Assembly: GCA_965198005.1 (NCBI GenBank)
Contig: CBDAOI010000003.1
Coordinates: forward strand, 768,479-832,478
Reading direction: 5' to 3'
DNA length: 64,000 nt
From: Spirochaetia bacterium
Lineage (GTDB): Bacteria; Spirochaetota; Spirochaetia; SZUA-6; Bin103
The position numbers and the translations under genes are program-made. Under the pieces are notes generated by a model. The model saw only the letters and a program-made list of their open reading frames with translations. It was not told the DNA's origin and searched no databases. This document shows, in pieces, positions 2,164 through 32,637 of the stretch; positions within the stretch are counted from its first letter, which is position 1; each line of letters begins with the position of its first letter.

Positions 2164-2169
2164 AAGGAG

Positions 2170-7894: not shown

Positions 7895-7974
7895 GCTAAC
7901 TAGAATTTACCAGGTTTATCTGCCATCCCTTATAGCGCCGAGGATACAGATGACTGCTATACACGTACTGCCTC

Positions 7975-8160
7975 TTGCCACTGCAGATGCCTGCCTGGAA
8001 ATGGTTGGGCGTACCGAATCATTATCCCCATGCGGCGTTGGATGCCTTCGTGATCATGCCCAGTCATGTTCATGCGATCATCGTGATCGCGGATATCGTA
8101 GGGGCGACCCCGACGCGTCGGGGCGCCCCTACCCAAGGCGCCCCCCGGGTGGACCGCGCG
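7975..8160 (+). pseudogene. Fragment of an IS200/IS605-like REP-associated tyrosine transposase (RAYT).
   Basis: …FVIMPSHVHAIIVIADIV… carries the HxH motif typical of the IS200 fold. It is short, has no proper start and runs into the REP copy at 8105-8132. Confidence 0.5.
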
Positions 8161-8232
8161 GGCCATCAGTTACCGGCATGAACATGCGATAGCGCAGGAG
8201 GCCGCTGCCATGGCGGTGGTAGTGCAGGTCTT
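8160..8232 (+). other. ~70-bp orphan fragment of the PEP-utilising enzyme gene.
   Basis: GGCCATCAGTTACCGGCATGAACATGCGATAGCGCAGGAGGCCGCTGCCATGGCGGTGGTAGTGCAG matches 4858-4925 and 35711-35780 (…AISYRHEHAIAQEAVAMAVVVQ…). Confidence 0.7.
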
Positions 8233-8277
8233 GGTAGAGTTGTTCCCACGAGTTGAATCCAAGGAAGGAAGAAAACA

Positions 8278-10887: not shown

Positions 10888-11000
10888 GCGCACTCTTGTG
10901 CGTCCCGTCCGGCCCGGCGAGTATCCTCACGATGTCGTGGTAACGTTCCACCGGAATCACTGGAAAGGTTCACCGGAATACGCAGGACGGGGTTGTCATG

Positions 11001-11699
11001 TCAACGGCCGGCGCCCCTGAGCCGCGGGTCGAGCAGGTCCCGCACGGCGTCACCGAACATGTTCAGGCTGTAAACAACGATGGTCAGCGCGACGCCTGGC
11101 CATAAAGCCAACCATGGCGCGTGCTCCATGTACCTACGCCCTTCCCGGCTGAGCATACCTCCCCAGCTAGGAATGTTCGGTGGCAGACCGAATCCGAGGA
11201 AGCTCAGAGAGGCCTCAGATATAATCACCCCCCCGATGTTGATGCTGAAGATGATGATGAGGGGCGCCACAATATTGGGCAGGACATGCCGCAACAGGAT
11301 TTGGGTCGTGGGGGTGCCCACGGCCTCGGCTGCCAGAAAATAGTCATTCTCCTTAATATCGATAACGGCGCCTCGGAGTACTCTCGAGCCGCCGATGCCC
11401 CCTGTTATCCCCAAGACCAAGATGATCTGGGGCAGACCCCGCCCCGCTATGGACATGATGGTCAATAACAGAAGCAGGCCCGGAAAAGCCATCCAAGCAT
11501 CGACAAATCTTTGTACACCCAGGTCCAGTTTACCACCAAAGAATCCTGAAATGCCGCCTATCAGGACAGCCACCCCAACATTGAGAGTGGTCGCGGCCAG
11601 ACCGACGGTCAACGAAAGACGAGCCCCGTAGACAAGGCGGCTCAGGAGGTCTCGCCCCAAAATTGTCAGCAACACCCGCCTGATGATATAGGCTCTCAT
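11001..11699 (-). pseudogene. Chimeric permease relic: the first ~13 codons of a DppB-type permease joined in-frame to the C-terminal two-thirds of a DppC-type permease.
   Basis: MRAYIIRRVLLTI is the DppB start (compare 33174). The continuation …LGRDLLSRLVYGARLSLTVGLAATTLNVGVAVLIGG… aligns with the DppC-type protein 34194-35126 from residue ~75. This implies an internal deletion of ~1.2 kb. Confidence 0.7.
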
Positions 11700-11744
11700 G
11701 TCACAGCTTATTGAGCGTCCGCAGCAAAACCCGGTGCAGGGGCA

Positions 11745-12535
11745 TCAAAAAATAACCTCTACTCCTCTTTCTCGGAGCCCAGGGATATAGACTTCCTTCG
11801 ACGTCTCGCTCAAGGGGTTACCAGACAAACTTACAGTGTCCCCCTCAGAAAGCCCGCCGTTCTCCACCAGTGGTGAGATGTCGCTTATTTGGTTAAACAT
11901 AAGGTCGAGCTCGGTGAGATTAGTCAGGGAAGCTAGCGGTGCAATGTCGCTTATCTGGTTCAACGCAAGGTCGAGCTCAGTGAGGTTAGTCAGAGAAGCC
12001 AGTGGTGAGATGTCGCTTATCCGGTTCTTCCTAAGGGCGAGATTGGTGAGATTAGTCAGGGAAGCTAGCGGCGAGATGTCGCTTATCCGGTTGTCGTAAA
12101 GGCTGAGCGAGGTGAAGTTGGCGAGCGAAGCCAGTGGTGAGAGGTCGCTTATCCGTCCATAGTGGAAAACCAGCTCGGTAAGGTTACTCAAATACTCCAA
12201 TCCGGCGAGGTCGGTGATCTTGACTCTCGCATATCCCCTGCCTGATTCACGAAGCGAGGTGATGGTTTCCAGCTCCGAAACATGGATGGGACCTTGATGC
12301 TTCTGGATAGCTGCCCTTATGACTCTCTCAAGAGCTTCGTCGGGGATGGTGACCCCTTCGCCCACTTCTTCTGTAGCACTAACAGGTTCTTCTGCAGTAC
12401 ACTAACAGGTTCTTCTGCAGTACTTGCAGGTTCTTGTTCTTCTGCAGTATTTACAGGTTCTTCCGCAGGGCCACAGCCGGAAAGAGTGAATATCATTACG
12501 AAGACAACGAACAAAGGCAAGCATTTCCTATCCAT
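11745..12535 (-). CDS. Leucine-rich-repeat lipoprotein. An apparent frameshift or overlap falls in the N-terminal repeat region.
   Basis: The N-terminus is MDRKCLPLFVVFVMIFTLSGC (a lipobox). Four or more 22-aa LRR units follow (LASLTNLTxLxLxxNxISDISP). ORFs 12317-12535 and 11745-12365 overlap across a tandem DNA repeat (ACAGGTTCTTCTGCAGTA)n at 12370-12475. Confidence 0.6.
11860..12140. repeat. 66-bp coding tandem repeats (LRR units), four or more copies.
   Basis: The unit GGTGAGATGTCGCTTATC(C/T)GGTT…AGGTCGAGCTC(G/A)GTGAG(A/G)TTAGTCAG(G/A)GAAGC(T/C)AG(C/T)GG is reiterated. Confidence 0.8.
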
Positions 12536-12687
12536 CTGCGTCCACCTCCTGTTGCTTACCGCCCAAATTATACGCTGGCGCTCTATCCCGTTGCCCTGAG
12601 CAGAGGAACTGGGAAGCGCGCTTGCATTTCCTATCCATCTGCGTCCACTTCCTGTTGCAAGCGACAGCCTCCCAGCTCCCTTTTTCC

Positions 12688-14175
12688 CTAACGACCCATG
12701 GCGTTCTTCAGCTCACTATCGATCCAGATCCGGGCTTGGACGGTATTACGTTCACCCCATCCCATTCCTGCTTCACCGAAATAACCCTCGACCCACGGCT
12801 GGCTCACGGAAAACTGAGGGGACTTGGATTTGACTAGGCCCCAGTGCTCCCTCACAGTGATCTCATCGGCCTGTCTCAAAAGACTCCTATACTCCTCCAA
12901 GTCGGTAGTTTCTTGGGAGGCAAGATACAGGGCGTCCATACGCGGGTCCTTCGCTTTGTTGTAGCTCCAGCCAAAGTTTTGGCTAATCCCCTTCATGGGA
13001 TTCCAAAAGGTGACGCTGCTGCCGCCATTATATCCCCCTTGCACTAGCGCCCACTCGTGCGTGTCCGCGCTATTGTCAGCGTTATGCTCAGCGATAGTCT
13101 GCGGGACAAGCTCGCCTTCAACGCCAATGGCGTCGAAGTACCCCATGATGAGTTCTGCATAGTCTGTGGTGTACCTCTCAAAGGCCCTTACCTTGAGCTT
13201 GAATCTATAGCCGTCGGCGCCGCGGGGATACCCGGCCTCATCAAGGAGCTCCTCGGCCCTTTCGGGGTTATAGGTATATTCTTGCTTGACCTCCTCGGGC
13301 CACTCTTCATATGGCCAGGCCCACCCTTCTTCAAGATCTTGTCTCATTAACCCGGCAGGCGCTGGATCTCCATAACCCTTAAAGAAGCTGGCGGAATTTG
13401 CCTCGCGGTCCACTGACATCTGCAGTGCCTTGCGCACAATGGGGTCGGCAGTGGGCGGCAAAGCCCAGTTGAAAACGAAAACGCCGGCCGGTGCCCCAAG
13501 AAAGGGCCACACCTCGATTTCAGGGTTGGTCCGCTCGAGGGTCTCCAAATCGTCGACATTGTATATCCAAGAGTCGCCGAAGTTACCCATCACATCAATC
13601 TTACCCGTGCGGAATGCTGCCAGACGTGCTGACATCTCTTTCATCATCAGGGACCTTAACTCGTCAATATAGGGTAGGCGGTTCTCCGGGAATTTTTCGT
13701 CGTAGCCCCAGTAGTTAGGATTCTTCTCCCAGGTTACAGAGCTGCCGTCCACGTACTCAGTCAGTCTCCAGGGCCCGGTGCCGACCAGGTTCCTCCAGTC
13801 CTTAGCGTCTCCGTACTTCTCGATTACCTCGGGAGCGTACGCAACCCAGTAGGGGTTGAGCAGTTTCCCCAGCACATCGAGGGTAGGCTCCGTCAGCTTC
13901 ATAACTACCGTCCATTTGTCGGTGGCCGTTACCGATTCGAGACCTACACCCCAGGTGGTAGCAAATGTATGGGCGCTAGGTCCGGCCTCGGTGAAATCGC
14001 CCAGACCGAAATAGCGGTGATAGTTGTGTTCGACGTCATAGGCATCGAACTCCCGACCGTTCACCGGCTCCTTATCGTCCCAGTAAACGCCCTTGCGGAT
14101 GTTCCAGATGAACGTTGTGTCGTCGGGCATCGACCAGCTTTCAGCCAGAGCCCCTGTAGTCATCTCTGGGGTCAC
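12688..14175 (-). pseudogene. N-terminally truncated family-5 SBP (no signal peptide, ~100 N-terminal residues missing).
   Basis: It begins at …ALAESWSMPDDTTFIWNIRKGVYWDDKEPVNGREFDAYD…, which is residue ~75 of copy A. There is no upstream coding continuation. The post-stop hairpin region is conserved. Confidence 0.7.
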
Positions 14176-14978
14176 AATGGCGTAGTCTCTACCGTTCTGA
14201 AGCGCGCGGCGTGTGACTCACCGGGTTCACGCCGCGCGTGCGTGCGGTTCTTTGAGTATCACTTTGCACCTCCTTTCTTGAGCTATGCGGTGCCCTGACG
14301 GATGCCTGACGGAAGCTGTGTGTCTCGGGCCGGCGCTAGACGTAAGATGGGGTGCGCCGCGCGCAGCGCGTGTGCGCCCCATTAGGCAAACACCGACCGC
14401 TCGGCCAACGTCGGCACCTGCGTCGCGCCGCCTCGGGGGGCGGTGGTCGGCGGAGCAACGAATGTGATTGACCGGCAACGCCGGCGGTGGCTTTTGTCGG
14501 CAGTAAGTCGCGGGCGGGGATCCGGGACGGTTGCGGTGGTCAGTGAACGAAGGTGGACTCAGCCGGCACCACACGTAGCCGGCCGCTACCCCCTTGCTCA
14601 CGGCGCAGGCGCCCACCTCGGCGCGTACGGGGCGGTCAGCCGGAGGGGGGGGGGTAGGCGAGGATAGGACGCGCCGGTTGCGTTGCCGCTAGGAGCGTGT
14701 CGGCTGCCGCCGACGAGGTCCGAGCGGATCGGCGGAATAGACCGCCCCGACGCCTCGGGCGTCGGTTTATGGGGCGCCAACCGGTGGCTGCGCTGAGTAG
14801 TGTCATCAGGCATCGTTCGCATCCGTTCGTTACCCGAGACACTACCCTCGCACACCTGCGGCAACCACGTCAAGCGGCAATTGAAGGTTTTTTTCGATTT
14901 TTTGGATTTTTTGGTATCTTATGTGCCAGCCAGGCCAACGACCCACCACAATTGAGTGTCGTCCTAAAGTGTGCAAGC

Positions 14979-15734: not shown

Positions 15735-15881
15735 GAGATTTGGGCATGTTCTTGGAGTCTCCGGGGGCGTAACCGAGGTGCGCCAGCGGCTAGCCGAAGG
15801 CTACGCGCGGGCCGGCTTCGTCCTGGCGTTTCATGGCTCGCCTGTGGCATCATGGCGCACAGAGGATCCACACGCACACAT

Positions 15882-16200
15882 ATGAGCAAGCACATGATAA
15901 CCGTCGCGGTGACCGGCTCGGTGCCGACGCGCGACCAACATCCCGGCCTCCCCCACACCCCCGCGGAGATCGCCGACGCCACCTACGACTGCTACCGAGC
16001 AGGCGCCGCCATCGTCCATATCCATGTGCGCGATCCCGAGACCGGGGTCCCCACCTACCGCCTCAAGCTATTTCGCGAGTGCGTCGAGAGGATCCGCGAC
16101 AAGTGCGACATCCTCATCAACCTGACGACCAGCGGCAACAACATCCCCCGTAAGAACGTCATTGAGGAACGGCTGGTGTTGCGTTGCGCGCCCCGAGCCG
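15882..16200 (+). pseudogene. N-terminal ~105-aa fragment of a BKACE-family enzyme (3-keto-5-aminohexanoate cleavage enzyme, DUF849).
   Basis: MITVAVTGSVPTRDQHPGLPHTPAEIADATYDCYRAGAAIVHIHVRDPETG…ILINLTTSGNN matches the BKACE N-terminal TIM-barrel signature. Homology stops at ~16200 where the putative transposon end begins. Full-length enzymes are ~280-310 aa. Confidence 0.65.
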
Positions 16201-16204
16201 AGGT

Positions 16205-16331
16205 TAGTTGCATGATAGATGGCGCGGAGTGTGGGCGGTGGTCGTTCCGTTCCGAGTGCGTCCCTGGTGCGGAACAAGGGAACAGCGGAACAGTGGTCGG
16301 ATGAGAGCGAGCAGGCAGGCGACGGGCGGGG
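16205..16331. repeat. Putative transposon terminal region with reiterated GTTCCG/CGGAAC motifs.
   Basis: CGTTCCGTTCCGAGTGCGTCCCTGGTGCGGAACAAGGGAACAGCGGAACAG lies between the truncated BKACE gene and the AAA_25/tniB/tniA module. No matching opposite end was identified in the window. Confidence 0.35.
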
Positions 16332-17273
16332 TCAGGCCGGCAGGTGCCAGCCGGCGGGGCTGCGGACGGCGAGGCCGCGCTGTTCAAGGGTTTGGAGGGC
16401 GAGACCGAGACGGGCGTTGTTGACGCGCAAGCGTTGGCGGAGGGCGGTCCTGGAGAGCGGCTGGCCGGCGCTGCGGAGAGCGGCGCGCACCGCCTCGGCG
16501 AGCGGGGGCGGCGGGGCGGCAGCACTGTCGACGAGCAGGGAGAGGGGCTGGTCAGCGCCGCCTGAGAGGCGCAGCAGGAGGGGATCGGGAGCGGGAGCGG
16601 CGCGGTGCTCGACGGTGAGTTGGAGACGGTCGTCGGGGCGCCGCACCAGATAGCAGGCGGAGTCGGTCCAGGCGTGCAGGTCGGAGGAGCCGCGCAGAGA
16701 CTGGCCGAGATTGCGGCGCGAGCGCTTGGCCATGTGGTGGACGAGGACCAGAGCGAGTTGATAGCGGCGGTTGAGGGCGCGCAGAAAGCCGAGCAGAGAA
16801 GAGATGTCTGAGGCGCTGTTCTCGTCGAGACAATGAAGTCGGACCAGAGGGTCCAACAGCAGGAGTATGGGACGGATCTGAGCCACGGTCTGGTCGAGCG
16901 CGAGCTGGTCGCGCTCGGTATCGAGGCGCAGCCGGTCGGAGGTGACGACGTGCAGGTCGAGGCGGGTTAGGTCCAGGCCGCGGTGGCGGCACAAGTGGGC
17001 GACACGGTCGCGGACGCGGGGCAGAGCATCCTCGGCGAGATAGACCAGGGCGGGACCGGTGGCCTCGACCGGGAACCGCCCGAGGGCTGGGGTGCCGGAC
17101 GCGACCGAGACCGCGAGATCAAGTCCTAGCCAAGACTTACCAACTTTGGGCTGACCCCCGATTGCCCCCACGGCGGCGGCGGTCCAGAGGTCGTGCACCA
17201 ACCACTGGGGGGTGTCGGATTGGGGATCGATGGCATGGACGGGAACGGTGGGCAGCGGTTTGGTCATGGCCAC
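16332..17273 (-). CDS. AAA_25 / RepA-like RecA-fold ATPase associated with the tni module.
   Basis: …GAIGGQPKVGKSWLGLDLAVSVASGTP… is a Walker A loop in the AAA_25 context. Its start overlaps the tniB stop by 10 nt (17264-17273). Confidence 0.6.
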   Translation of the reverse strand: MAMTKPLPTVPVHAIDPQSDTPQWLVHDLWTAAAVGAIGGQPKVGKSWLGLDLAVSVASGTPALGRFPVEATGPALVYLAEDALPRVRDRVAHLCRHRGLDLTRLDLHVVTSDRLRLDTERDQLALDQTVAQIRPILLLLDPLVRLHCLDENSASDISSLLGFLRALNRRYQLALVLVHHMAKRSRRNLGQSLRGSSDLHAWTDSACYLVRRPDDRLQLTVEHRAAPAPDPLLLRLSGGADQPLSLLVDSAAAPPPPLAEAVRAALRSAGQPLSRTALRQRLRVNNARLGLALQTLEQRGLAVRSPAGWHLPA

Positions 17274-18067
17274 AGGTACCTGCGAGCGGCGATCACGTCA
17301 CCGGCACTGACGGTGGTGGCGGGGGTCTTGGCGGCGTGCTGCAGCGCCGCCAAGGCCAAGCGGTCGATGGCCCGCAGGTTGCCGTGGCTCATTTCGAAGA
17401 TGGTTTCCTGAGCGTCGCCGTCGAAGGGATTGGTGCGAGCGCCGGCGAGGGTGCAGCGATGTTCGACGTAGGCGCAGGTCTCATCCCGGGAGAGCAGACG
17501 CAGTTCGGCGTAATGCGCCAGACGGTGCGCGATGCCGGTTTGTTCGGGGCGTCGGAGGAGCAGTTTCAGGTGTGGCTGGCCGGCGAGCACGAGGGACACG
17601 ACGAGGCGACTGTCCATTTCGAAGTTCGTGAGGACCCTCAACATGGCCAACGCTTCGGGGCGCAGATCATGGGCCTCGTCGAACAGGATGACCGGGCGCA
17701 GACCGTCGCTGGCGGTGTGTTCGAAAGCCTCCTGCAGCTTGCGCACCAGAGCGGGATAAATGCCGGTGGGAGAGAGGCCGCAGGCGACGGCGATTTCCTT
17801 GCACAGGTCACGCTTGGAGAGGCCGGTCACCTTGACGTAATGGACCTGGAAGCGCGCCTCCGGCAGAGCGGCGAAGAGCATGCGCAAGGCGACGGTCTTA
17901 CCGGTGCCGGCGGGAGCGATGAGGGCGGCGCTCATGCGCTCCTGCACCGCCTCGGTGAGTGCGGTGGCGACCTGTGCTTGAGGTTCGAGAGGGAACCGCT
18001 CGCGCACGGTCAACTCGCGGGTAAAGGGGGTCTTGCGGAAGCCCAGTGGGCTGAGGTCATGGCTCAT
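17264..18067 (-). CDS. tniB: TniB-type transposition ATPase (AAA_22 / ExeA-like).
   Basis: Motifs: LIAPAGTGKTVAL (Walker A), ILFDEAHDL (Walker B), LVLAGQPHL. Its start overlaps the tniA stop by 4 nt (18064-18067). Confidence 0.75.
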   Translation of the reverse strand: MSHDLSPLGFRKTPFTRELTVRERFPLEPQAQVATALTEAVQERMSAALIAPAGTGKTVALRMLFAALPEARFQVHYVKVTGLSKRDLCKEIAVACGLSPTGIYPALVRKLQEAFEHTASDGLRPVILFDEAHDLRPEALAMLRVLTNFEMDSRLVVSLVLAGQPHLKLLLRRPEQTGIAHRLAHYAELRLLSRDETCAYVEHRCTLAGARTNPFDGDAQETIFEMSHGNLRAIDRLALAALQHAAKTPATTVSAGDVIAARRYLWP

Positions 18068-18735
18068 GGGTGCTGCTCCTGGTCGTGTTGGTCGTCCTGT
18101 GGATCGCTATAGCCGCCCTCGGGGTCGACCAGCGGGCGCAGGTCGTTGGCGTAGGCGATGCCGGCCGCAGTGGCAGGCAGTTCCTCGCCGTCCTCGTCGG
18201 CGGTCGGTTGCGGCGCGCGACCGGAGCCGCGCGGCGCGGTCGCGTTGGCGTGGGGGTCCACCTCAGCCAGCTCGATCATGCGCCCCTGGTGCTGAACCCA
18301 CAGCCGACCGTCGAGCACGTGGCGTGCCACCTCGACCCAACTGGCAGCGCTGCGGCGCGGCGCTTCCCACAACCGACCGTCGGCCTTGATGACGTGATCG
18401 TTGGAGACCTTGTGCATGGCGCGCACCACGAAGCGGCGGTACAGATCGGCGTCGTCTGTGGGGAAGCGTAGGGGACGCCCTTGCTCCCAGCGCTGACGCG
18501 GGGTGGTATCCTTGCCCAGAGTCTCGTGTGGGGTGTCGTTGTAGCGGTCGAGGAAGTGGCGCAGGCGGAGCGTGAGTGCCTCGCAAGCGGGGTCCACGTC
18601 GGCGGCGCCGTCGAGGGACCGCAGCACCTGATCGTACGCGGTGCGGTTGAAGCGCTCGATGGCGCCGTGGCCCTCGGGATACCTGGTGGCGCCGTGGATC
18701 AGCAAGGCGCCCAGTCCGCCCTGGATCACGCTCAA
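18064..18735 (-). pseudogene. tniA: C-terminal part of a Mu/TniA-type DDE transposase (tniA) separated from its N-terminal part by the RIT insertion.
   Basis: …HGAIERFNRTAYDQVLRSL… is the rve catalytic-core C-terminus. The upstream sequence (18766 onward) is a RIT inverted repeat, not tniA. Confidence 0.7.
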
Positions 18736-18891
18736 CGTGTCGAGGGAGATGAATCCCGGGCCTTTATCAAGGAAATGCCGAATTCGGCATTACCTTGATT
18801 ATCCCGAAAAAAATGAAATGCCGAAGTTTGTCGGTAACTTGTTTCCACACAAACAGATAGCGTTGCAAACTTCGGCATAACATTGGGGCTC

Positions 18892-19920
18892 TTAGAGGCC
18901 GCACAGCCGCCTCAGACTCTCCTCATCCTTCCAGGCGGGCGTTTCGTCCGCCAGCCCGGGATCTGCTCGCTCGATGGCTTTGCGCAGCATCTCGGTATCC
19001 GCGGAAGCATAGATCTCAGTGGTAGTCACGCTTGCATGTCCCAGGAATTCCGCAATATAAGGAAGCGGCATCCCGGACTGATAGAGATGCATCGCACGGC
19101 TATGTCGAAACAGATGAGGGTGCACTCTCGGCGGCACCTCAGCACATGTCGTGCGCGCACCTTCGCCGTAGTTCTTGACCAATACGCTGATCGCATCGGT
19201 GGATAGCATGTGCGGCCTACCCGCGTGCAGGGAATAGAACAGCGGCACTTCGTGACGGTCGGCGGGGCCAGCATGGAATTGCCGTAGATATTCCTTCAGA
19301 TGGGCAACGGTCTTGTCCATGAGAGGAACACTTCTGGTTTTGTTGCCTTTGCCGGTCACCAGTACGAATGGAGTTCTTGCCTCCAGATGGAAGTCGGTGA
19401 CGCGCAAGTCGACCAGCTCTTGAACCCTGGCTCCTGTGTCGTATAGCAGAATCATGATCATCCTGTTCCGTCTCCCCTTTACGGTTGTCTTATCAGGTTG
19501 AGCGAGCACCGTCCTCAGGGCCGTCTGCGACAGGTAACCGACCGGCGTCCGGGCCATCTTCAGTAATGGAATCTTTTTCACCTCCTGGAACACACTATAG
19601 AGGCTGACGTCTTCATCCGCACAGTATCTGAGGAATGCCTTGAGAGCGGATAGTCTGAGATTGCAGGTTGCGACTCCGCACGGCCTCTGGCGCAGCCACT
19701 GAATGTACTTGATCACCGAGTCTCGCGTGAAGTGATCCCATGATACATTCGCGAACTTGATCCGATGTTGTGCTTCGAGGAAGTCGCAGTACATGCCTAT
19801 CGATCGTCTGTAGGAGTCAACGGTGTGCGCACTGCAACAGCGTATTTTCGGCAGGTGCACCGTGAGGTACTCACGTACACACTTCCAGAATTGTTGTCCC
19901 GATGTGCTATCCCTGGTCAT
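18892..19920 (-). CDS. ritC: RIT tyrosine recombinase C (third gene of the trio).
   Basis: C-terminal catalytic motifs: …HPHLFRHSRAMHLYQSGMPLPYIAEFLGHASVTTTEIYA (R…HxxR…Y). The start is probably MTRDSTSGQQFWK, overlapping the ritB stop by ~14 nt. The longer ORF from 20076 is spurious. Confidence 0.75.
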   Translation of the reverse strand: MTRDSTSGQQFWKCVREYLTVHLPKIRCCSAHTVDSYRRSIGMYCDFLEAQHRIKFANVSWDHFTRDSVIKYIQWLRQRPCGVATCNLRLSALKAFLRYCADEDVSLYSVFQEVKKIPLLKMARTPVGYLSQTALRTVLAQPDKTTVKGRRNRMIMILLYDTGARVQELVDLRVTDFHLEARTPFVLVTGKGNKTRSVPLMDKTVAHLKEYLRQFHAGPADRHEVPLFYSLHAGRPHMLSTDAISVLVKNYGEGARTTCAEVPPRVHPHLFRHSRAMHLYQSGMPLPYIAEFLGHASVTTTEIYASADTEMLRKAIERADPGLADETPAWKDEESLRRLCGL

Positions 19921-20875
19921 GGTCCACCTCCGGAAGAATGGCCTCAGTGGCGCGCACCTTGGCCGCGAATGTAGCGAAGAACTCGGGAACCAGGTGAAGG
20001 TAGTAATCGGTACTTGCCAGGCTGGCGTGTCCCATGTACCTGCTGAGATAGGGGAGCATGGCGTTGACCTCAACACCGGTCGCGATCCACCGGTTCAGAT
20101 TGCTGAGCGCAAAGTGGTGCCTGAAGTCATACGCACGCGGTCGGTTGCCGCATCCCGCTCCCAGGCCCGCCGCCTTCCAGATGCGGTTGAATACTGCTGC
20201 TACGCTGCCGCCGCTGTAGCAATCCGATCTCGTTGTCGGGAAAAAGTAGATTCTCCCGGGATATATCACGGACACTCGTGCGGCATATCGACGGAGCAGA
20301 CCCAGAACGTCGGCCGGCACCGGAAGTCTGCGACTTCTGCAACCCTTCGAACGCATGATGTCGATGTGGCTGGCTTCCAGATCAACCTGCTCAACGCGCA
20401 GCGTTCTTGCCTCACCGGTCCTCAGACCACAGCAATACAGGAGGCGGAAGAATACCGGCAGGACCAGATGTCGCGCCTGCGCCGTCCCATGGGACTGGAG
20501 CTTGTCGCAGGCGCCGAAGAATGCCGTAATCTCCTGGTGAGTAAAGAAATGAGGCACGTACCTAGCGGCGGCACGGATGCCGGCTGAGGGAAGCACGAAG
20601 GCATCTGCAACGCCGATCGACTGCATATACTTGCCAAGTTCACGGATCGGCGATATCCGGATACGATGCCCTGCCAGATTTTCTCCGTCCTTGGCTTTCG
20701 CCCAACCGTGGACCAACTCTCTGCCGAGGGATTGGAATGCGGGATGCCGGGCTGCGTATCTGTCGAAATCATGGAGATAGAACTCAGCGCTCTCATAGGA
20801 GTAGCCAACGGCGCGCTTGGTCGCGACCAGTCCCGAGATAAAGGGTGCAAACAGGCTTGAGTATGCAGTATTCAT
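19907..20875 (-). CDS. ritB: RIT tyrosine recombinase B.
   Basis: …YDFRHHFALSNLNRWIATGVEVNAMLPYLSRYMGHASLASTDYYLH is a catalytic C-terminus. The likely start MNTAYSSLF gives an ATGA overlap with the ritA stop. Confidence 0.75.
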   Translation of the reverse strand: MNTAYSSLFAPFISGLVATKRAVGYSYESAEFYLHDFDRYAARHPAFQSLGRELVHGWAKAKDGENLAGHRIRISPIRELGKYMQSIGVADAFVLPSAGIRAAARYVPHFFTHQEITAFFGACDKLQSHGTAQARHLVLPVFFRLLYCCGLRTGEARTLRVEQVDLEASHIDIMRSKGCRSRRLPVPADVLGLLRRYAARVSVIYPGRIYFFPTTRSDCYSGGSVAAVFNRIWKAAGLGAGCGNRPRAYDFRHHFALSNLNRWIATGVEVNAMLPYLSRYMGHASLASTDYYLHLVPEFFATFAAKVRATEAILPEVDHDQG

Positions 20876-22107
20876 GACAGGCCTGCGCAGTTCACGGGAA
20901 TCTTGGCGAGGTCCAACGCACACTCCCTCATGCGCTGTTGGTCGGTCGCCAAGTAGACGTCGGTCGACTCTTTGTGGGCGTGTCCAAGCATGGTCGAAAT
21001 GGTAGTGACCGGGACCCCCTTGGAGAGCATCCTGGAGGCCGCAGAGTGACGCAGCACATGGAGCCCTTTGCGTTCGCTACCAACCCTTATCCCGGCTTGG
21101 AGGAAGGCTCGCCGAAGCACTGCATAACAGGCCGCATGGCCTGACAGAACGGTGAATGGGGCTAGACAACGAAGGAATACATATGAAGTAGCCGTTGTTG
21201 GACGCTCATTGAGCAGGTAAGCGGAGAGCGCATTGCCAACATCCGCGATCAGCGGGATCTTGAAGGCGATTCCGGTCTTTGACTGGGCGATTGTGATGGT
21301 GTCATTGATCCAGTCGATATCTGTGAGTTTGATCCTCAGGATGTCTACGGAACGCAATCCGGTTCGCAAGGCCAACAGGATGATGGCCTTATCCCGAAGC
21401 CGGAGTTGGCCGTTCTGCAGCACCTTTTCCAGTGCATCGTTTTCGTGGTCCAAAAGGATCGGTATGATTGGCCTGTTTCTGACACAGCGTGAAGGGACTG
21501 CCAATAGCAGCCGTTCTTCGGTTTCTGCGAATCTGAGAAACGAGCGGATGTTCGAGGCAACGGTACGAATACTGGTGGGCCGGTATGTGGCGAGCAGATG
21601 CTGGAAGAAAGCCGGTACCATAGCGGCGCTGGCGAGCGCCAGCGAAGTGCAGTCGTGGTCCTCCAGGAACAACAGGAATTGGCGGACTGCGCTGGCACAT
21701 GATTGTATCGTATTCGCGCTTTTGTTTGTGGCTGCAAGCTCGTCCATGAACCTCTCATGCAGGAGCAGCAATTCTCTCGACTTGGGCATCGGCTGGCAGT
21801 CGAATGTGTACGTGGTCCACCTGATTGCTCCGTTGGCGACGTATTCTTGCAGTATCAACGATGCTCGTCTGAGATGGTTTCGTCTGCCACGTCCGATTGC
21901 GCCCGCCTTGTGCTGTTCCTCTAGGTCATGCAGGAAACTTTGGATCAGACTGTCGCAGAAACGTTCGACGTTGCGCGCGGCTGCGTACTGCTTGAGCCGC
22001 CTATATGTTTGTCGATAGTGGTTGATCGTTATCGGGTCAAGGCCGAACTTTCCGATCTCCTGAAGAACGCTCTCGACAAGATCGTCCAACAATAGGTTGT
22101 CGTGCAT
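20872..22107 (-). CDS. ritA: RIT tyrosine recombinase A (largest, 411 aa).
   Basis: …LHVLRHSAASRMLSKGVPVTTISTMLGHAHKESTDVYLA is a catalytic C-terminus. It is first in the trio and lies directly inside IR-R. Confidence 0.75.
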   Translation of the reverse strand: MHDNLLLDDLVESVLQEIGKFGLDPITINHYRQTYRRLKQYAAARNVERFCDSLIQSFLHDLEEQHKAGAIGRGRRNHLRRASLILQEYVANGAIRWTTYTFDCQPMPKSRELLLLHERFMDELAATNKSANTIQSCASAVRQFLLFLEDHDCTSLALASAAMVPAFFQHLLATYRPTSIRTVASNIRSFLRFAETEERLLLAVPSRCVRNRPIIPILLDHENDALEKVLQNGQLRLRDKAIILLALRTGLRSVDILRIKLTDIDWINDTITIAQSKTGIAFKIPLIADVGNALSAYLLNERPTTATSYVFLRCLAPFTVLSGHAACYAVLRRAFLQAGIRVGSERKGLHVLRHSAASRMLSKGVPVTTISTMLGHAHKESTDVYLATDQQRMRECALDLAKIPVNCAGLS

Positions 22108-22183
22108 TGTGCACCTCCCTGATGATGTCCAGATGGATGTCTGGCGCTCTCATCATAGAAGGGGCCTTGCCCATCGGCCAATA

Positions 22184-22960
22184 TTATGCCGAAGTTTGCA
22201 ACGCTATCTGTTTGTGTGGAAACAAGTTACCATCAAACTTCGGCATTTCATTTTTTTCGGGATAATCAAGGAAGAACAAATCAGCCAAGCCGTGCCGTAT
22301 GACCAGCGCCCAGAGAGCGCGCAGGAACAGCTCGCTGGACTCCGCGGTGCCCACCAGCACTCCCAGGCCGTAGCGCGTGGCATCGTCAATCAGGAACAAG
22401 GCGACCCGGCGCAGACGTGCGGCGCCGGCGCGGAAATGCTTGCCGTCAGCGAGCACGCACTGCATGCGCTGCGCATAGCGCCAGCGCCGCATGTCCCCCT
22501 CACGCTTGTGCGGTCGTTGGCGCGTCGGCAGCCCCATCCGCCGGCAGGCGCGCCACACGGTGGTGCGATCGATCTTGGCGTCGACCGGGATGATGCCGAG
22601 CTCCCGCGCGCGGCGCACCAGTTCCGGCACCGAGGCGCGCGCATCACGCTGCTTCTCGGTGCGCAGAAAGGTGACCAGTTTGGGACTCAGCGCCAGTGAG
22701 GTCGCGATGCGGGTGCGGCTCTGCGGCGTCAGGGCAGCGAGGCTGCCGGCGGCCCAGGCAGCGCGCCAGCGTTGCAAGCTGCGTACGCTGACCCGCACCG
22801 GGCGCCCGTCCAGGTCCACGCGGTCGGTGCCGGCAACGCGGCGTACGGCGGCGCCTGCGGGCCAGCCGCGCACCACCAGGGCCTCGACCTCGGCGACCAC
22901 CAGGTAGCGCTGCAGCGCGGTGGTCGAGACCGGTAGCGGGGGACGATCTGAATCATTCAT
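22184..22960 (-). pseudogene. tniA: N-terminal part (HTH plus start of the DDE core) of the tniA transposase interrupted by the RIT element.
   Basis: …RVALFLIDDATRYGLGVLVGT… is the first catalytic-D region. The frame then reads into RIT IR-R (…DYPEKNEMPKF…). The start ATG overlaps the stop of orf312 (ATGA at 22957-22960). Confidence 0.7.
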
Positions 22961-23895
22961 GAGCGTACCGTAGCGCCTCCGGGGGCGCCTCGATCAAGCA
23001 ATTTCGTAGTGGGTGGAGCGCGCTCCCGAGGGCTCCCGGCACCCCCCTGTTCCCGCGCTGCGGAAGCCTCGGTCGGGGCCACGATCCAGCTCTTGCCGGC
23101 CTGCTCCCAGCGCGCCACCAGCCGCGGGCGCGGCGGCCCCCACAGGTCGCTCACCGCCCCGGCCGCCGCCATGCGGTCCCCCAGCGTGGCGGCGGCCGTG
23201 ATCGCCCGCAGCACGGCCACGATCGCTGCGCCGCGGCTCTGCCAACTGCGCCCCCAGCGCGCGGCGCCGTCCCGCACGGTCATGGTCGCTACGCCCAACC
23301 GCGTCGCGATCCGTTCGCGGGCGCCCTCGTCCAACCCCGGACTCACCCCGGTCAGGCGTCCGGCCACCTCCAGGCGGCGTCCTTGGGTGCGCCGCCGGCG
23401 CCGCTCCGGAGAGCGGTGCCACCAGTGCACCTCGGCTGGCCAGTGCTCCCCCCGCGCCGCATCCTGCGCCGCCGCAAACAGCGTCGCCTGCCACTGCGGT
23501 CGTCTGCCGGCTGCGTCCAACAGCAGGTCCCCACTTGCGCTACAGGGTGTCGCCGCAACGCGGCCATACGGGTAGTGTCCGGGCGGATACAGGGTGTAGC
23601 GCCGGCCTCCATGGACCCGGCACCCCACCACCGCTACCGCGTGGCAGGGCCCGCTCTTGCGCTTTCGGTAATGATCGACGAAGATGGCACACGTCTGCTC
23701 CCCTGTGGCGTAGACGCACCGCGACGGCAGCACGGCGCGCAAGGTCCCGTCCTGATCCGCTTGGTAGTTCGTCGTCGCCAACGGGAGCGCGTGTGCCTCG
23801 GTTGCACCCTCGGACACTCGCTGCCTCTCGTGAGCCTTGGCGGGCGGTTGTCTCCCGCCCGCCAAGGCCGCCTGAAAAAGTGAAGCCCGCAGCAT
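22957..23895 (-). CDS. Hypothetical 312-aa protein translationally coupled upstream of tniA.
   Basis: Its stop overlaps the tniA start (ATGA). It is Arg/Ala-rich with a Cys/His-containing segment, QTCAIFVDHYRKRKSGPCHAVAVVGCRVHGGRRY. No recognisable domain was found. It could in part be a GC-rich artefact. Confidence 0.4.
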   Translation of the reverse strand: MLRASLFQAALAGGRQPPAKAHERQRVSEGATEAHALPLATTNYQADQDGTLRAVLPSRCVYATGEQTCAIFVDHYRKRKSGPCHAVAVVGCRVHGGRRYTLYPPGHYPYGRVAATPCSASGDLLLDAAGRRPQWQATLFAAAQDAARGEHWPAEVHWWHRSPERRRRRTQGRRLEVAGRLTGVSPGLDEGARERIATRLGVATMTVRDGAARWGRSWQSRGAAIVAVLRAITAAATLGDRMAAAGAVSDLWGPPRPRLVARWEQAGKSWIVAPTEASAAREQGGAGSPRERAPPTTKLLDRGAPGGATVRS

Positions 23896-23995
23896 TCACC
23901 TGCTGCGGGCTCCTCACTTTATACCCCTATCGCTTCTCCGCCTACGCCATCATCACCGCAACCGGTACCCCCTCACCGCGCCCTTGGGCGCGCAA

Positions 23996-25684
23996 CGAAG
24001 AACTCAGGCACGTGCGTACGTCATATACCGGGACCTGGGAGGTCTTCGGGTCGTCCCGGCGAGTCGTCGCCGGGACCGCGGAGGGAAGGCGTGAGGCTGG
24101 ACCAAAGATGAACGACCCGAAGGAGTCGGACATGGGCATAGTAGCGGCGAAGCCGGCGAACAAGGGAGCGCAAGCGACTGCGGAGACGGTGGAGCGAAGG
24201 CCCATGACCAACGGGAATTCGCAAGGTCAAAGCACGGGCCGGACGCAGAGTCGGGCAACCGTGACACAGGCGGCCGAGCGGATACGGCAATTCGTAAAGA
24301 GAGAACCGCAGGAGAAACTCACTGCGCTGCTGCACCACGTGACGCCGGAAGCGCTGCGGGTGGCCTATTACGCGCTGAAGCGTGAAGCGGCCCCGGGGGT
24401 GGACGGGATGACGTGGCGGGAGTACGAGACGGGGTTGGAAGTGCGTTTGCACGACCTGCACCGGCGAGTACACACAGGAGCGTACCGAGCGACCCCGGTA
24501 CGGCGGGTCAACATCGACAAGCCGGACGGAGGCACACGACCGCTGGGGGTGGCCGCGCTGGAGGACAAGATCGTCCAGAAGGCCGTGGTGGATGTGATCC
24601 TGACACCGATCTATGAGGAGGAATTTCTCGGGATCAGCTATGGGTTTCGACCGGGGCGAGGGGCACACGATGCGTTGGACGCACTGGCCTACGCCATCGA
24701 ACGGCGCGAAGTGAACTGGATATTGGACGCGGACATTCGCGCCTACTTCGACACGATCTCGCGGGACTGGTTGATCAGATTCCTGGAGCATCGGATTGGA
24801 GATCGGCGGGTGCTGCGGCTGATAAAGAAGTGGCTGCGCGCTGGGGTACTGGAAGAAGGCCGACAGATCGACGCGGGGCGGGGTACAGCGCAAGGGTCGG
24901 TGATTTCACCGATGCTCGCGAATATATACTTGCACTACGTGTTGGACCTGTGGGTCACCAAGAAGTGGCGGCCGCAGGAGGCGCGCGGAGACATGATCAT
25001 AGTGCGCTACGCAGATGACTATGTCGCCGGGTTCGAGCATCGTGACGATGCGGAACGCTTCCTGCGGGAACTGAAGGAGCGATTCAGAGGCTTCGAGCTG
25101 GAACTGAACGCCGACAAGACCCGACTCCTCGAGTTTGGACGGTATGCCGAAAGGAACCGCCGAGCACGTGGGGAAGGGCGACCGGAGACGTTCGACTTTC
25201 TGGGTTTCACGCATTATTGCAGGAAGGACAGGAAAGGACGCTTCGGGCTGGGGCGGAAGCCAATTCGGAAGCGGATGAATCGTACGCTGAAGAGGATCAA
25301 GATCGAACTCCGCAGACGCATGCATGATGACGTGATGGAAACCGGGCGCTGGCTGGGACGGGTACTGCGCGGATGGCTCAACTACTACGCGGTATGCGCG
25401 GATGGCTCAACTACTACGCGGTACCCACCAGCTACCGCTACCTGCACCGATTCGTGTGGCGTCTGCGAGGAATCTGGGTAAAGATTCTACGCCGGAGGTC
25501 CCAGAAGGACCGATTCTCCTGGGCTTGGATGCTGGCGATCAGCATCGAGCTGTGGCCCCAACCCCGAATCGTACACCCATGGCCGGACCGGCGATTTGCC
25601 GTCAACCACCGAAGGTAGGAGCCGGATGGTTTAACGACCACGTCCGGATCTGTGCGGGGGGCGCCGGGTAACCGGCGTTCCTAC
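23996..25684 (+). mobile_element. Group II intron copy 1: a 5'-truncated fragment comprising the domain IV ORF plus domains V and VI.
   Basis: It is co-linear, apart from the 31-bp insertion below, with 45568-47226 of copy 2. It lacks the ~250 nt that precede that point in copy 2. A domain-V-like hairpin GAGCCGGATGGTTTAACGACCACGTCCGGATC lies at 25623-25655. Confidence 0.7.
24204..25620 (+). pseudogene. Group II intron reverse transcriptase/maturase (IEP) disrupted by a 31-bp tandem duplication.
   Basis: RT motifs include …PGVDGMTWREYE… and YADDYV, with a maturase X domain. The direct duplication GCGGATGGCTCAACTACTACGCGGTA at 25367-25428 shifts the frame within …RGWLNYYAV…. Confidence 0.75.
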
Positions 25685-30215: not shown

Positions 30216-30788
30216 TAGTCGCCCAGCCAACCGCGCGACAGCCGTTCGCTCGGCGCCGGTGCTGAGCGCGGCACCATCGATCGGTGTGGCGCACAGCCGC
30301 CACGCGTCCGCGCGTCTAGCGGCCGACCGGGTCGGCCGCAGCCTCCACCAGTCCACTGAGCGAGCGTTGCCGGCAACCCAGCTTCGAGTATCCAGCTCAC
30401 CTCCCAGCTCCATTCATCATCGGCGAGCGTGCTTTGGCTTGCCGACGACACGGCCTGCAGCGCCATCCGCACGCACCCCGGTCAACGCTTCACCCTCGCT
30501 CTTGCGAGCGGCAGCGCATGACTCGGCGCCGCCGCCGTGGGCCGCCAGCCCTTCGACGTATGACTCTTCCATTCACCACACCCTGCCGGTTTTTGCCGGT
30601 GCACAGGAGGCCCGAATGATACTCAAAGAGCCGTAGGCGCGCGCGGCGTGAGCCGGGGCGAACCCGGGTGAGTCACACGCCGCGCGCTTTTGGTGAACTT
30701 GACTCAGACTGGCCGCCTGCGTTGCGCGTGGCCAGGGAGCGGCAAGTCGCTCCGAAATACTCTCGAGACAACATTCAAGGAGACAAGG

Positions 30789-32558
30789 ATGAAGATACTA
30801 TTTGCAAGGACCTTCGCGATTGCGTTGGTCCTAGTTCTGACCGCAACCGGCCTCTGGGCCGCCGGCGCAGAAGAGGCACCGGCAGCCGCTGCCGAAAAGA
30901 AATATGTGACAGACCCCACCACCGGTAAGGTGGTGGTGGCGCCAGAGTATGGCGGGACATTCACCTTCGCTCACCAAACGCTCTCTGGCATTTTTGACAG
31001 CGTGGTCCAAGGTAGGTGGGCGTCCGGCTATCACGGTCTCGTTCTAGATAAGCCGGCTCTCGCGGACTGGGGAAGAGATAGGGATGAATTTGCCTTGAAT
31101 TTGCCGTGGCCAACTCTACCTTACTTAAGAGGGGCACTGGTGGAAAGCTGGGAGCAAACTGACGACCTAACCATTATCTTCCACATCCGCAAGGGCGTTC
31201 ACTGGCATGATAAGGAGCCGATGAGCGGTCGGGAGTTTACTGCTGATGACATTGTATTTAACTATCACCGGATACTGGGTCTGGGCAGCGGCTTCACCGA
31301 ACCTACCCCCCAGAGGACGGCTCAACTCCTTCCTATAAAAGTCGAATCGGTAAGGGCTACCGACAAATACACGGTTGTCTTTAAGCTGAAGGAGCCAAAC
31401 ATCAAGGCGCTGCAGGGTATCGTCGACGACGAAGTAGCTTATATACATCCCCCCGAGGTAATCAAGGAACACGGCGACACCACGGATTGGAGGAACCTGG
31501 TCGGCACCGGGCCCTATGAGCTGACTGACTACGTCGAGGGCAGCTCTATAACCTATACCAAGAATCCTGACTACTGGGGCTACGACGAAAAATACCCGGA
31601 GAACCGCTTGCCCTATTTCGACCAGATAAAGGGCCTTGCGTTGCCAGAAGTGGCAACAATGCTGTCGGCACTGCGCACCCGTAAGATTGATTTTCTTTCT
31701 TATGCCATAAGGAGTATCGACCAGGTAGAGAGTCTCCAGCGGACCAACCCCGAAATCCAGATGTTTACGCATTACACCCGGTCGAATGAAACGTTTGGTA
31801 TGAACGTTCAAAAGCCGCCCTTTGGCGACATCAGAGTGCGTAAGGCAATGCAGATGGCGCTGGACCTTGAGACAGCCAACACTACCTTCTTTAAGGGTTG
31901 GGCAGAAATGACACCTTATGGGCAGAACCGGGGACCGGGTCTTCACGTTCCATTTAAAGAGTGGCCCGAAGAGGTCAAGAAAGTCTTTACCTATGACCCG
32001 GAAGGTGCAGAGGCGTTGCTTGATGAAGCCGGATTACCTCGCGGCTCGGATGGCATTAGATTCAAGACCGTGATGACATTCAACCAAAGTTACAATGTGG
32101 CTTATGGAGAATTATGCGCTGCATACTGGCGTGACATTGGCGTCGAGGTAGAGCTTGACGTATTACCGGGCGCTGTCCAAAACCAAAGAAGAGGAGATAG
32201 GGATTACGAAATGATGACTACGGAAGCGGCCTTCCTCAACCCTCCCTTGTCACAACGCTTTTACTCGGGATTCCACCACAACACCGCCAACCCACAAGAC
32301 CCGTGGTATGATGCCGCGTATGAAGCCCTCGCAAAGGCTAAATCCTTCGCGGAGTTTGAGGAAATGGAGCGAGAGATGGATATGTATGCGATAGAGAAGT
32401 TCTGGCACATATGGGGTGGTATGGCCCCACAGATTCTCACGTCTCAGCCTTGGGTCATAGGTTATAACGGTGAACTGGCCTTGGGTGCCGGTCAATATAG
32501 GCTGTCATGGTCCCGCATGTGGTTTGACTCAGCGCTGAAGGAAGCAATGGGTTATTAG
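30789..32558 (+). CDS. ABC transporter substrate-binding protein, family 5, with signal peptide (copy B).
   Basis: MKILFARTFAIALVLVLTATGLWAAGAEEAP is a signal peptide. The mature protein is collinear with copy A, though only ~45-50% identical. Confidence 0.85.
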   Translation: MKILFARTFAIALVLVLTATGLWAAGAEEAPAAAAEKKYVTDPTTGKVVVAPEYGGTFTFAHQTLSGIFDSVVQGRWASGYHGLVLDKPALADWGRDRDEFALNLPWPTLPYLRGALVESWEQTDDLTIIFHIRKGVHWHDKEPMSGREFTADDIVFNYHRILGLGSGFTEPTPQRTAQLLPIKVESVRATDKYTVVFKLKEPNIKALQGIVDDEVAYIHPPEVIKEHGDTTDWRNLVGTGPYELTDYVEGSSITYTKNPDYWGYDEKYPENRLPYFDQIKGLALPEVATMLSALRTRKIDFLSYAIRSIDQVESLQRTNPEIQMFTHYTRSNETFGMNVQKPPFGDIRVRKAMQMALDLETANTTFFKGWAEMTPYGQNRGPGLHVPFKEWPEEVKKVFTYDPEGAEALLDEAGLPRGSDGIRFKTVMTFNQSYNVAYGELCAAYWRDIGVEVELDVLPGAVQNQRRGDRDYEMMTTEAAFLNPPLSQRFYSGFHHNTANPQDPWYDAAYEALAKAKSFAEFEEMEREMDMYAIEKFWHIWGGMAPQILTSQPWVIGYNGELALGAGQYRLSWSRMWFDSALKEAMGY

Positions 32559-32607
32559 GGGTTTTGAGCAGCCGCGGCCACCCATTGTGGCTGAGCTCAG
32601 GGAAAAA

Positions 32608-32637
32608 GGGAACTGGGAGGCTCAAGCCTCCCGTTCC
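32608..32637 (+). promoter_or_regulatory. Conserved hairpin 3' of the SBP stop (GGGAACTGGGAGGC-TCAA-GCCTCCCGTTCCC).
   Basis: It occupies the same position as the hairpin at 1730-1753. Confidence 0.4.

Follow-up and report, generated by a model that had tools for sequence, protein, structure and literature searches.

The 64,000-nt stretch analysed here (hereafter the window) comes from a Spirochaetia bacterium (contig CBDAOI010000003.1, positions 768,479 to 832,478 of the forward strand). On its minus strand it carries four consecutive genes that raise a simple question: what kind of mobile element, if any, is made up of an unfamiliar open reading frame (ORF), a split transposase gene, an AAA+ ATPase gene and a gene for a RecA-fold ATPase of the Pfam family AAA_25? 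An earlier inspection of the letters alone (the sequence-only reading) had suggested an uncharacterised Tn5053/Tn7-like four-gene family, and this suggestion was borne out: the order of the block is conserved across phyla, inverted repeats and 5-bp duplications bound it at many sites, and TniQ and TniR are absent. The locus is probably a dead copy of a widespread and apparently undescribed, cargo-free four-gene transposon of ~4.35 kb, which belongs to the Mu/Tn7/Tn5053 (TnsB plus AAA+) superfamily. The copy and its genes lie as follows, the ends of the element being the limits of the segment common to the intact copies L004-L013; a recombinase-in-trio (RIT) element interrupts the transposase gene.

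16177..23997, minus strand: whole copy of the element, 7,821 bp (~4,342 bp once the RIT element is subtracted)
22957..23817, minus strand: orfX, 286 aa (312 aa if read from the ATG at 23895)
22272..22960, minus strand: N-terminal part of the TniA-like transposase, with helix-turn-helix (HTH) domains and the first D of the catalytic triad
18064..18774, minus strand: C-terminal part of the TniA/TnsB-like DDE transposase, with the second D, the E, the beta-barrel and a conserved C-terminal tail
17264..18067, minus strand: TniB/TnsC/MuB-like AAA+ ATPase, 267 aa, Pfam AAA_22
16332..17267, minus strand: AAA_25 RecA-fold ATPase, 311 aa (313 aa from the alternative GTG at 17273), with a C-terminal winged-helix-like domain

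The four minus-strand ORFs of the sequence-only reading, in the order orf312 (here orfX), tniA, tniB and AAA_25, were all recovered by ORF calling and Pfam searches. As read on the minus strand they span 22957-23895 (312 aa), 22184-22960 and 18064-18735 (the transposase pieces), 17264-18067 (267 aa) and 16332-17273 (313 aa). Translational coupling had been proposed for every junction, and overlapping stop and start codons of the ATGA type were indeed found at three of three. The 10-nt overlap described for the last junction, however, was an artefact of starting at the GTG at 17273; gene callers and homologues use the ATG at 17267 (311 aa), which gives ATGA there as well. For orfX, the most likely start to judge from the sequence is the GTG at 23817 (286 aa), and the ATG at 23895 falls in the loop of a conserved hairpin.

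Boundaries, target duplications and distribution

Ten contexts of a 94%-identical AAA_25 homologue contained the same block (a 285-aa ORF, an intact transposase of 473 aa, a 267-aa AAA_22 protein and a 311-aa AAA_25 protein) in unrelated surroundings. Pairwise BLAST between intact copies always returned the same common segment, which corresponds to positions 2746-7091 of the reference copy L005 (4,346 bp, 98-99% identity). The element begins with 5'-TATTGCGTTGCGCGCCC... and finishes with ...GGGGCGCGCAACGCAACA-3', and these ends form a 17-bp inverted repeat with 16 of 17 positions matching and tips of the TGT/ACA type. The right-hand repeat is present in the window:

16177..16193, minus strand: right terminal inverted repeat, reading ...GGGCGCGCAACGCAACA-3' along the element and TGTTGCGTTGCGCGCCC along the plus strand

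The terminal repeat showed little or no variation among copies from Spirochaetia, Gemmatimonadota, Chloroflexota, delta-proteobacteria, Hyphomicrobium and Planctomycetota, and TGTTGCGTTGCGCGCCC stayed almost unchanged even where the proteins share only 40-55% identity. Intact copies were flanked by perfect 5-bp direct repeats (GTAGC, CCATG, GCTGG and GTCGG), and with a relaxed end pattern perfect 5-bp target duplications were found in 19 copies. When the empty sites of these 19 were reconstructed and aligned on the insertion point, no target motif emerged, no position within +/-90 bp exceeding 0.7 bit.

Relatives of the AAA_25 protein were numerous (4,699 at E<=1e-5, the top 120 being at least 68% identical), and many were encoded on contigs 4.3-5 kb long. 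Scanning one genome per species yielded 79 loci, all in metagenome-assembled genomes (MAGs) and often in several copies per genome, with hosts that include Spirochaetia, Nitrospiraceae, Gemmatimonadota, Chloroflexota, Rhodothermales, Actinomycetes, delta-proteobacteria, Chromatiaceae, Bacteroidales, Myxococcota, Hyphomicrobiales, Planctomycetota, Magnetococcales and others. The four-gene element is found in many metagenomic contigs and MAGs from more than 10 phyla, and copies are near-identical within genomes.

Searching with all four proteins (tblastn) gave 50 loci in which the four genes are collinear, at identities of 31-82% for orfX, 37-91% for TniA, 49-96% for TniB and 47-96% for AAA_25. 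An intact AAA_25 gene with 3.7 kb or more of sequence upstream was present at 39 loci; in 37 of them it was directly preceded by an rve gene and an AAA_22 gene, and in 30 all four genes were collinear. This arrangement is far beyond chance. No cargo genes, TnsA, TniQ or resolvase were detected among the ORFs of intact copies with Pfam and NCBIfam. The sequence-only reading had proposed seeking the same block in other genomes and locating conserved terminal repeats, and both were found. It had also allowed for the ATPase being a host or TniQ-associated protein and for orf312 being an unconserved neighbour; the ATPase is neither, and orf312 is conserved beside tniA. A published description of the four-gene family was not found in the searchable full-text literature.

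State of the window copy

The damage to the window copy and the sequences around it were mapped by comparison with intact copies.

15852..16176, plus strand: 5' part of a gene for BKACE (beta-keto acid cleavage enzyme), Pfam PF05853, E 2.2e-34, profile positions 1-103 of 274
16172..16176, plus strand: GCTGG, presumed target-site copy beside the right terminus, formed by the last bases of the BKACE fragment
18775..22271, minus strand: RIT element of ~3.5 kb, inside tniA and foreign to the transposon
23986..23997, minus strand: remnant of the left terminal inverted repeat, 12 of 17 nt (CGTTGCGCGCCC)
23996..25684, plus strand: group II intron with a reverse-transcriptase ORF (RVT_1, E 2.9e-34), 5'-truncated, not part of the transposon

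With tniA split by the RIT element and one tip damaged, the window copy cannot move on its own. Its orfX, tniB and AAA_25 genes remain undamaged and encode proteins that have identical counterparts on other contigs.

At the right end, BKACE sequence extends to 16176 and homology to other copies of the element starts at 16177. A truncated BKACE gene beside the element had been noted before, and the cut falls exactly at the CA-3' terminus of the element; the junction indicates that insertion of the transposon itself truncated the gene. The GTTCCG/CGGAAC-rich region at 16205-16331 had been taken for the left end. It does belong to an element end that abuts BKACE, but the terminus lies at 16177 rather than at ~16205, and by the direction of the genes this is the right end. 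The opposite side had been placed near 23895, whereas the terminus is actually at ~23997, ~100 nt farther out, and is damaged: alignment to intact left ends shows that the outer 5-7 nt (TATTG(CG)) are gone, and the broken tip is joined to the group II intron through a shared CG (microhomology). The remainder of the BKACE gene was searched for beyond this intron and was not found. The left flank is therefore not the original target but has been rearranged, which accounts for the absence of a partner to the GCTGG copy in a family that otherwise shows perfect 5-bp duplications.

Three adjacent tyrosine recombinase genes (18892-20076, 19907-20923 and 20872-22107; three Pfam Phage_integrase matches) between long inverted repeats identify the insertion in tniA as a RIT element. 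The repeats are 94 nt long and 97% complementary (18793-18886 and 22178-22271), and removing the element in silico restored a single open tniA frame of ~470 aa. A 9-nt TTCCTTGAT core, present at both RIT junctions, may be a crossover core or a target duplication. The same RIT element occupies the same position of tniA in three other contigs (L093, L094 and L095) and is inverted in L095, which suggests site-specific insertion or inversion between its long repeats. These RIT-bearing copies sit at other sites, in L093 within a perfect GTAGG duplication, and could have arisen by mobilisation in trans or by repeated site-specific RIT insertion at the TTCCTTGAT core.

The group II intron has a second copy in the window at 45351-47226, and 23996-25684 is 97.6% identical to 45567-47230. 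The first copy is without ~216 nt or more of the 5' end, and Rfam RF02005 was matched only in the second (45351-45575). Both copies are followed by CGCG, and the second seems to abut a fragment of an ABC-permease gene (45069-45273).

Transposase, AAA+ partner and orfX

The names tniA and tniB given by the sequence-only reading were right in so far as the genes encode a DDE transposase and its AAA+ partner, but the products are only distant relatives of the Tn5053 proteins. For the two tniA halves, Pfam returned weak rve_3 and HTH matches only. The DDE triad (D192/D232/E269) was invariant in the family alignment (A3) and is followed by a beta-barrel region and a conserved C-terminal tail. The best PDB match of TniA was the TnsB of ShCAST (7svw, residues 277-527, E 3.7e-8), the best PHROG a Mu-like transposase (PHROG 310, E 1.4e-26), and the best NCBIfam match the IS481 transposase model NF033577 (E 2.4e-25, 89.6 bits against a cut-off of 224). 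The window TniB matched Pfam AAA_22 (E 5e-21) and PHROG 296, 'DNA transposition protein' (E 5e-28), and aligned weakly over its full length with VchTnsC (7ufi, E 8.5e-4). AAA_22 was matched by 15 of 15 TniB members and Pfam TniB (PF05621) by only three of the 15, at ~1e-3; the Pfam model IstB_IS21 (PF01695) gave no match.

The product of orfX had no match in Pfam, NCBIfam, PHROGs or PDB sequences, and an exhaustive profile search placed it in a family of 835 clusters at 50% identity. Three residues are invariant (C42, C65 and H68) and a fourth, C33, is nearly so, which suggests a CCCH zinc ribbon as the putative N-terminal domain, followed by a helical domain. With a shallow alignment, AlphaFold had given a poor model (pLDDT 48) that made a fold search meaningless; a model from an alignment of 74 sequences reached pLDDT 87.6 and pTM 0.81. 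Foldseek with this model found no match in PDB (including TniQ and TnsD entries) or BFVD, the best hit having E ~0.5 and a TM score below 0.2. The idea that orfX might be a TniQ or TnsA analogue was accordingly rejected, there being neither a sequence match nor a Foldseek match in PDB or BFVD, and a nuclease role was dropped because no acidic residue of orfX is invariant. A DUF6431 match was obtained only for the orfX counterpart of one sister lineage, the L031-type described below (E 2.6e-5, below the cut-off).

The AAA_25 ATPase and its palindrome

The last gene of the operon matched Pfam AAA_25 (E 1.2e-32, 113.5 bits against a cut-off of 27). The sole PDB sequence relative of its product was the hexameric helicase RepA of RSF1010 (1g8y, E 5.9e-9), and the annotated PHROG relatives were helicase domains of primase-helicases. 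Walker A, Walker B and HHxxK motifs are invariant, and the C-terminal winged-helix-like domain bears a nearly invariant RVNNxRLG helix. An ATPase gene next to a palindrome recalls a rep gene beside its origin. From RSF1010 RepA and the AAA_25 helicase domains of plasmid and phage primase-helicases, the protein differs in the added winged-helix domain, in the coupling to a transposition operon and in having no primase or initiator partner.

The palindrome lies in the right end, among the following features of the two ends:

16207..16224, minus strand: right subterminal motif GTTGCA-N7-TGGCG, presumed second transposase-binding site, 13 nt inward of the terminal repeat
16243..16291, minus strand: GTTCC...GGAAC palindrome, between the AAA_25 stop codon and the right-end transposase sites
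23882..23913, minus strand: GC-rich hairpin of the left end (13-bp stem and following T run), located upstream of orfX
23945..23962, minus strand: left subterminal motif GTTGCG-N7-TGGCG, 23 nt inside the left repeat

The bipartite motif GTTGCR-N7-TGGCG is conserved at both ends across the family, with one subterminal site recognised per end, and since it lies 23 nt from the left repeat and 13 nt from the right one, the ends are asymmetric by one helical turn. The stem of the left-end hairpin, GAAGCCCRCGG...CCGYGGGCTTC, is kept with compensatory changes in distant copies and looks like an inward-facing terminator that would shield the operon from outside transcription. In the palindrome, GTTCC(G) occurs two or three times as a direct repeat; a ~15-nt spacer, with GGGGCGCGCT at its end, separates these copies from an inverted CGGAACGGAAC. 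Its octamer CGGAACGG was invariant in 11 diverse copies, and the lack of covariation points to sequence-specific recognition rather than a mere hairpin.

The palindrome always accompanies the AAA_25 gene, even in sister lineages in which the transposase, the AAA+ ATPase and the termini are different. One case is a group of five Spirochaetia loci, the L031-type (L031, L033 and L036-L038, in the MAG CBDBOG01), with an AAA_25 protein 77% identical to that of the main family and TniA and TniB proteins only 27-30% identical. These elements measure ~4.16 kb, start with a DUF6431-like zinc-ribbon ORF, carry 5-bp duplications in four of the five cases, and have termini (TGTCAGTGCCCGCGATCTGGT..., with three ~20-bp subterminal repeats at the right end) unlike those of the main family; they retain the same GTTCC...GGAAC palindrome 3' of AAA_25. 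The same four-gene layout and palindrome recur in L069, on an AT-rich Neomarinimicrobiota contig. A further lineage, the P0434-type, combines a 200-aa zinc-ribbon/HTH ORF, a 487-aa rve transposase, a 281-aa AAA_22 and a 314-aa AAA_25 protein with a variant palindrome (CTTCCCGCTTCCCG...CGGGAACGGGAAC). In all three lineages TniA and TniB are only 25-30% identical to the main family and the ends differ; the sister transposases hit Pfam rve and Mu-transpos_C.

These comparisons indicate a common signature of the superfamily, namely a predicted zinc-ribbon protein, an rve transposase, an AAA+ ATPase and an AAA_25 ATPase with a winged HTH, followed by its putative cognate palindrome. Within it the AAA_25 gene and the palindrome appear, by their joint distribution, to behave as one module, and the likeness of this module in the L031-type looks like an exchange between transposon lineages.

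Two apparent departures from the four-gene layout were examined and rejected. L012 seemed to be a three-gene variant (rve and AAA_25 without the AAA+ gene), but the relatives of its AAA_25 protein stand in the normal four-gene layout, and L012 is therefore a deletion derivative within the P0434-type lineage. A fusion of TniB and AAA_25 in L047 (a single frame of 625 aa in a delta-proteobacterial MAG) is likewise a frameshifted copy, because tniB and AAA_25 occupy separate frames in the sister copies L048-L050; apparent fusions in multi-copy elements can thus be decay products.

A degraded fragment of a related element is found elsewhere in the window (40510-41291, minus strand). It comprises the C-terminus of tniB and the first ~45 codons of AAA_25, is 89.6% identical to 17179-17632, and lies between an rve(Mu-transpos_C)/AAA_22 gene pair at 38765-40310 and a tyrosine recombinase gene at 41402-42472, in a region that is a mobile-element graveyard. 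An inverted pair of 52 nt (14640-14691 and 47912-47963) is 85% complementary and contains a G-run. Its copy at 14640-14691 includes GTTGCGTTGC, the 10-mer core of the transposon terminal repeat, which has two matches in the window against 0.18 expected; this could be a solo-end remnant or a coincidence.

Comparison with known transposons

The element shares with Tn5053/Tn402 an operon in which an rve DDE transposase gene precedes an AAA+ ATPase gene, the absence of TnsA, 5-bp duplications and TGT...ACA inverted repeats. In contrast to Tn5053/Tn402, it has no TniQ, no TniR serine resolvase, no res site and no res-site hunting (its targets show no consensus); it adds an upstream zinc-ribbon gene and a downstream RecA-fold ATPase gene with a palindrome in cis, and it carries no cargo.

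CRISPR-associated transposons (CASTs) of type V-K (TnsB, TnsC, TniQ and Cas12k) provide the nearest solved relative of the transposase. They too make 5-bp duplications, have several transposase sites per end, spaced differently on the left and on the right, and lack a 5' nuclease and a resolvase, so that cointegrate-type products are expected. The four-gene element differs from them in lacking TniQ, a CRISPR module and an attachment site, in its very low protein identities and in having one recognisable subterminal site per end. With Tn7-like elements it shares, distantly, a TnsB-type transposase and a TnsC-type AAA+ protein, as well as the 5-bp duplication, TGT...ACA termini and more than one transposase site at each end, but TnsA, a TniQ/TnsD selector and an attachment site were not found. 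The strongest annotated matches were the PHROGs of the Mu-like transposase and MuB; like phage Mu A/B, the element has non-specific targets and 5-bp duplications and would be expected to need replication after strand transfer, whereas at 4.35 kb it is not a phage and carries a RepA-like ATPase of its own. Replication of phage Mu relies on host ClpX and PriA-DnaB.

Tn552 (p480 transposase, p271 ATP-binding protein and BinL) resembles the element in pairing a Mu-like rve transposase with a ~270-aa AAA ATPase in a compact operon. It differs in its resolvase, bla cargo, long inverted repeats and 6-7-bp duplications, and has neither a RecA-fold ATPase nor a zinc-ribbon gene. IS481 elements consist of a single ORF rather than four genes, and the transposase scores far below the NF033577 cut-off; IS21 is set apart by the AAA+ protein, which is not IstB. 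By sequence comparison, then, the element falls outside Tn5053, Tn7, IS21 and IS481, and its features indicate that it works like a transposon of the Mu/Tn7/Tn5053 type. Together with the sister lineages it appears to represent a large unnamed superfamily of insertion sequence-like four-gene transposons with a new accessory pair.

No targeted DNA-insertion machines are better understood than Mu, Tn7, Tn5053 and CASTs, on which programmable integration tools are based. As far as is known, every described transposon with a TnsB/MuA transposase and an AAA+ protein delegates target choice to proteins of the TniQ/TnsD/TnsE type and post-transfer replication to the host. Here, a very abundant group has neither kind of selector and has instead fixed a helicase-like ATPase, a site in cis and a zinc-ribbon protein of unmatched fold. 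Recognising the family by its inverted repeat, 5-bp duplication and four genes would also improve the annotation of MAGs, in which these genes are now labelled 'AAA family ATPase' or 'hypothetical protein'.

What the AAA_25 protein may do

By analogy with Mu, Tn7, Tn5053 and type V-K CASTs, TniA would bind the terminal and subterminal sites, and TniB would coat target DNA and activate TniA through the conserved C-terminal tail of TniA. Strand transfer with a 5-bp stagger would then produce a Mu-like branched intermediate in need of replication or repair, which is expected because neither a TnsA-type 5' nuclease nor a resolvase is encoded. The AAA_25 protein may act at this point: its winged helix would bind the right-end palindrome, and the protein, as a ring helicase or translocase, would start replication or repair of the intermediate from the right end. 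The product of orfX would serve as a regulator or adaptor that binds DNA. The role of the AAA_25 protein as a palindrome-bound ring helicase or translocase that works on the intermediate is put forward tentatively, as a possibility that falls short of probable. If it does act in replication or processing of the intermediate, this would be a new answer to how replicative DDE transposons recruit a replisome.

Several points weigh against this proposal or against its premises. The helicase assignment comes from a 65-residue match to RepA and from similarity at the level of the AAA_25 family, and helicase activity is lacking in many RecA-fold ATPases. The palindrome may instead be a terminator or some regulatory site that is simply co-inherited with its neighbouring gene, and the great similarity of the L031-type copy could in that one case reflect recent recombination rather than functional constraint. 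Simple insertions with duplications at many chromosomal sites need either resolution of a cointegrate or a non-replicative pathway, and the gene content accounts for neither. Furthermore, the resemblance of TniA and TniB to characterised TnsB and TnsC proteins is weak (Pfam rve and NCBIfam IS481 below cut-off; TnsC at E 8.5e-4).

In a bolder version the transposon would be self-priming. A RepA-like ring helicase, loaded at an origin-like palindrome and possibly by TniB acting as a DnaC-like loader, would replicate the intermediate without the host restart machinery, and the helicase-plus-site cassette would be exchangeable among at least three transposase lineages. This version is rather unlikely; were it true, host-independent replication would explain how one compact element with near-invariant ends has colonised more than 10 phyla.

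Another role can be built on the placing of AAA_25 in the TniQ position by the sequence-only reading: the AAA_25 protein would replace TniQ or TnsE as the target selector, recognising some feature of the target and recruiting TniB and TniA. The gene does hold the position after tniB that TniQ has in Tn5053, TniQ is absent from the element, and the predicted winged-helix-like tail could bind DNA; a structure-specific selector of the TnsE type would, moreover, leave no consensus and would fit insertion sites devoid of a motif. The TniQ position holds for the gene order but not for a TniQ-like sequence-specific selector, against which both the conserved palindrome in cis and the missing target consensus argue: the only conserved candidate DNA site of the AAA_25 protein lies in the element and not in its targets, and the 19 insertion sites have nothing in common within +/-90 bp. 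A literature search also turned up no known target selector with a RecA/RepA fold. A selector role is thus unlikely, and if the protein did act in target capture it would represent a new class of selector.

A further possibility, and a very unlikely one, is that the AAA_25 gene travels with its palindrome as a semi-autonomous passenger, such as a plasmid-like replication, partition or exclusion cassette dispensable for transposition. Such a cassette would account for a module that is almost unchanged in two element types with unrelated termini within the same Spirochaetia lineage, a pattern that resembles cassette exchange, and AAA_25 domains are common in replication proteins of plasmids and phages. 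A dispensable gene would not, however, be expected to occur in 37 of the 39 copies with enough flank, to recur in three deep lineages with invariably the final place in the operon and an ATGA overlap with tniB, or to be as conserved as TniB (50-96% identity). Members without AAA_25 were not seen, except for obviously truncated copies, and no plasmid homologue was found among the 72,556 records of PLSDB at 1e-10.

Least probable of all is copy-out/paste-in transposition through a circular intermediate, as in IS3 and IS481, with the AAA_25 protein and palindrome replicating or processing the circle: the IS481 model is the best NCBIfam match of TniA (E 2.4e-25), a helicase and an origin-like site would suit a circle and many metagenomic contigs are about one element long, but these ~4.3-5 kb contigs have unique flanks on both sides, and circle-forming IS families have neither the TnsB/MuA-type C-terminal domains of TniA nor its AAA+ partner. 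Abutted right and left ends with a spacer of 0-12 nt were found in none of 241 million metagenome records, a weak negative in that the control pattern matched only 27 right ends.

Other features of the window

Three to four diverged paralogues (60-90% identity) of a peptide/oligopeptide ABC-transporter cluster, with SBP_bac_5 and permease genes, are packed into the 64 kb; the copies lie at 1-9100, 30690-39700 and 48470-53300, and in inverted orientation at 11000-14175. A tandem array of four 66-bp units with 64-100% identity (11867-12196) is located inside or beside an ORF at 11745-12365. On the minus strand, an ORF of 547 aa (43278-44921) in a region of 70-74% GC contains proline/alanine-rich repeats and, by eye, an HNH-like C-terminal motif.

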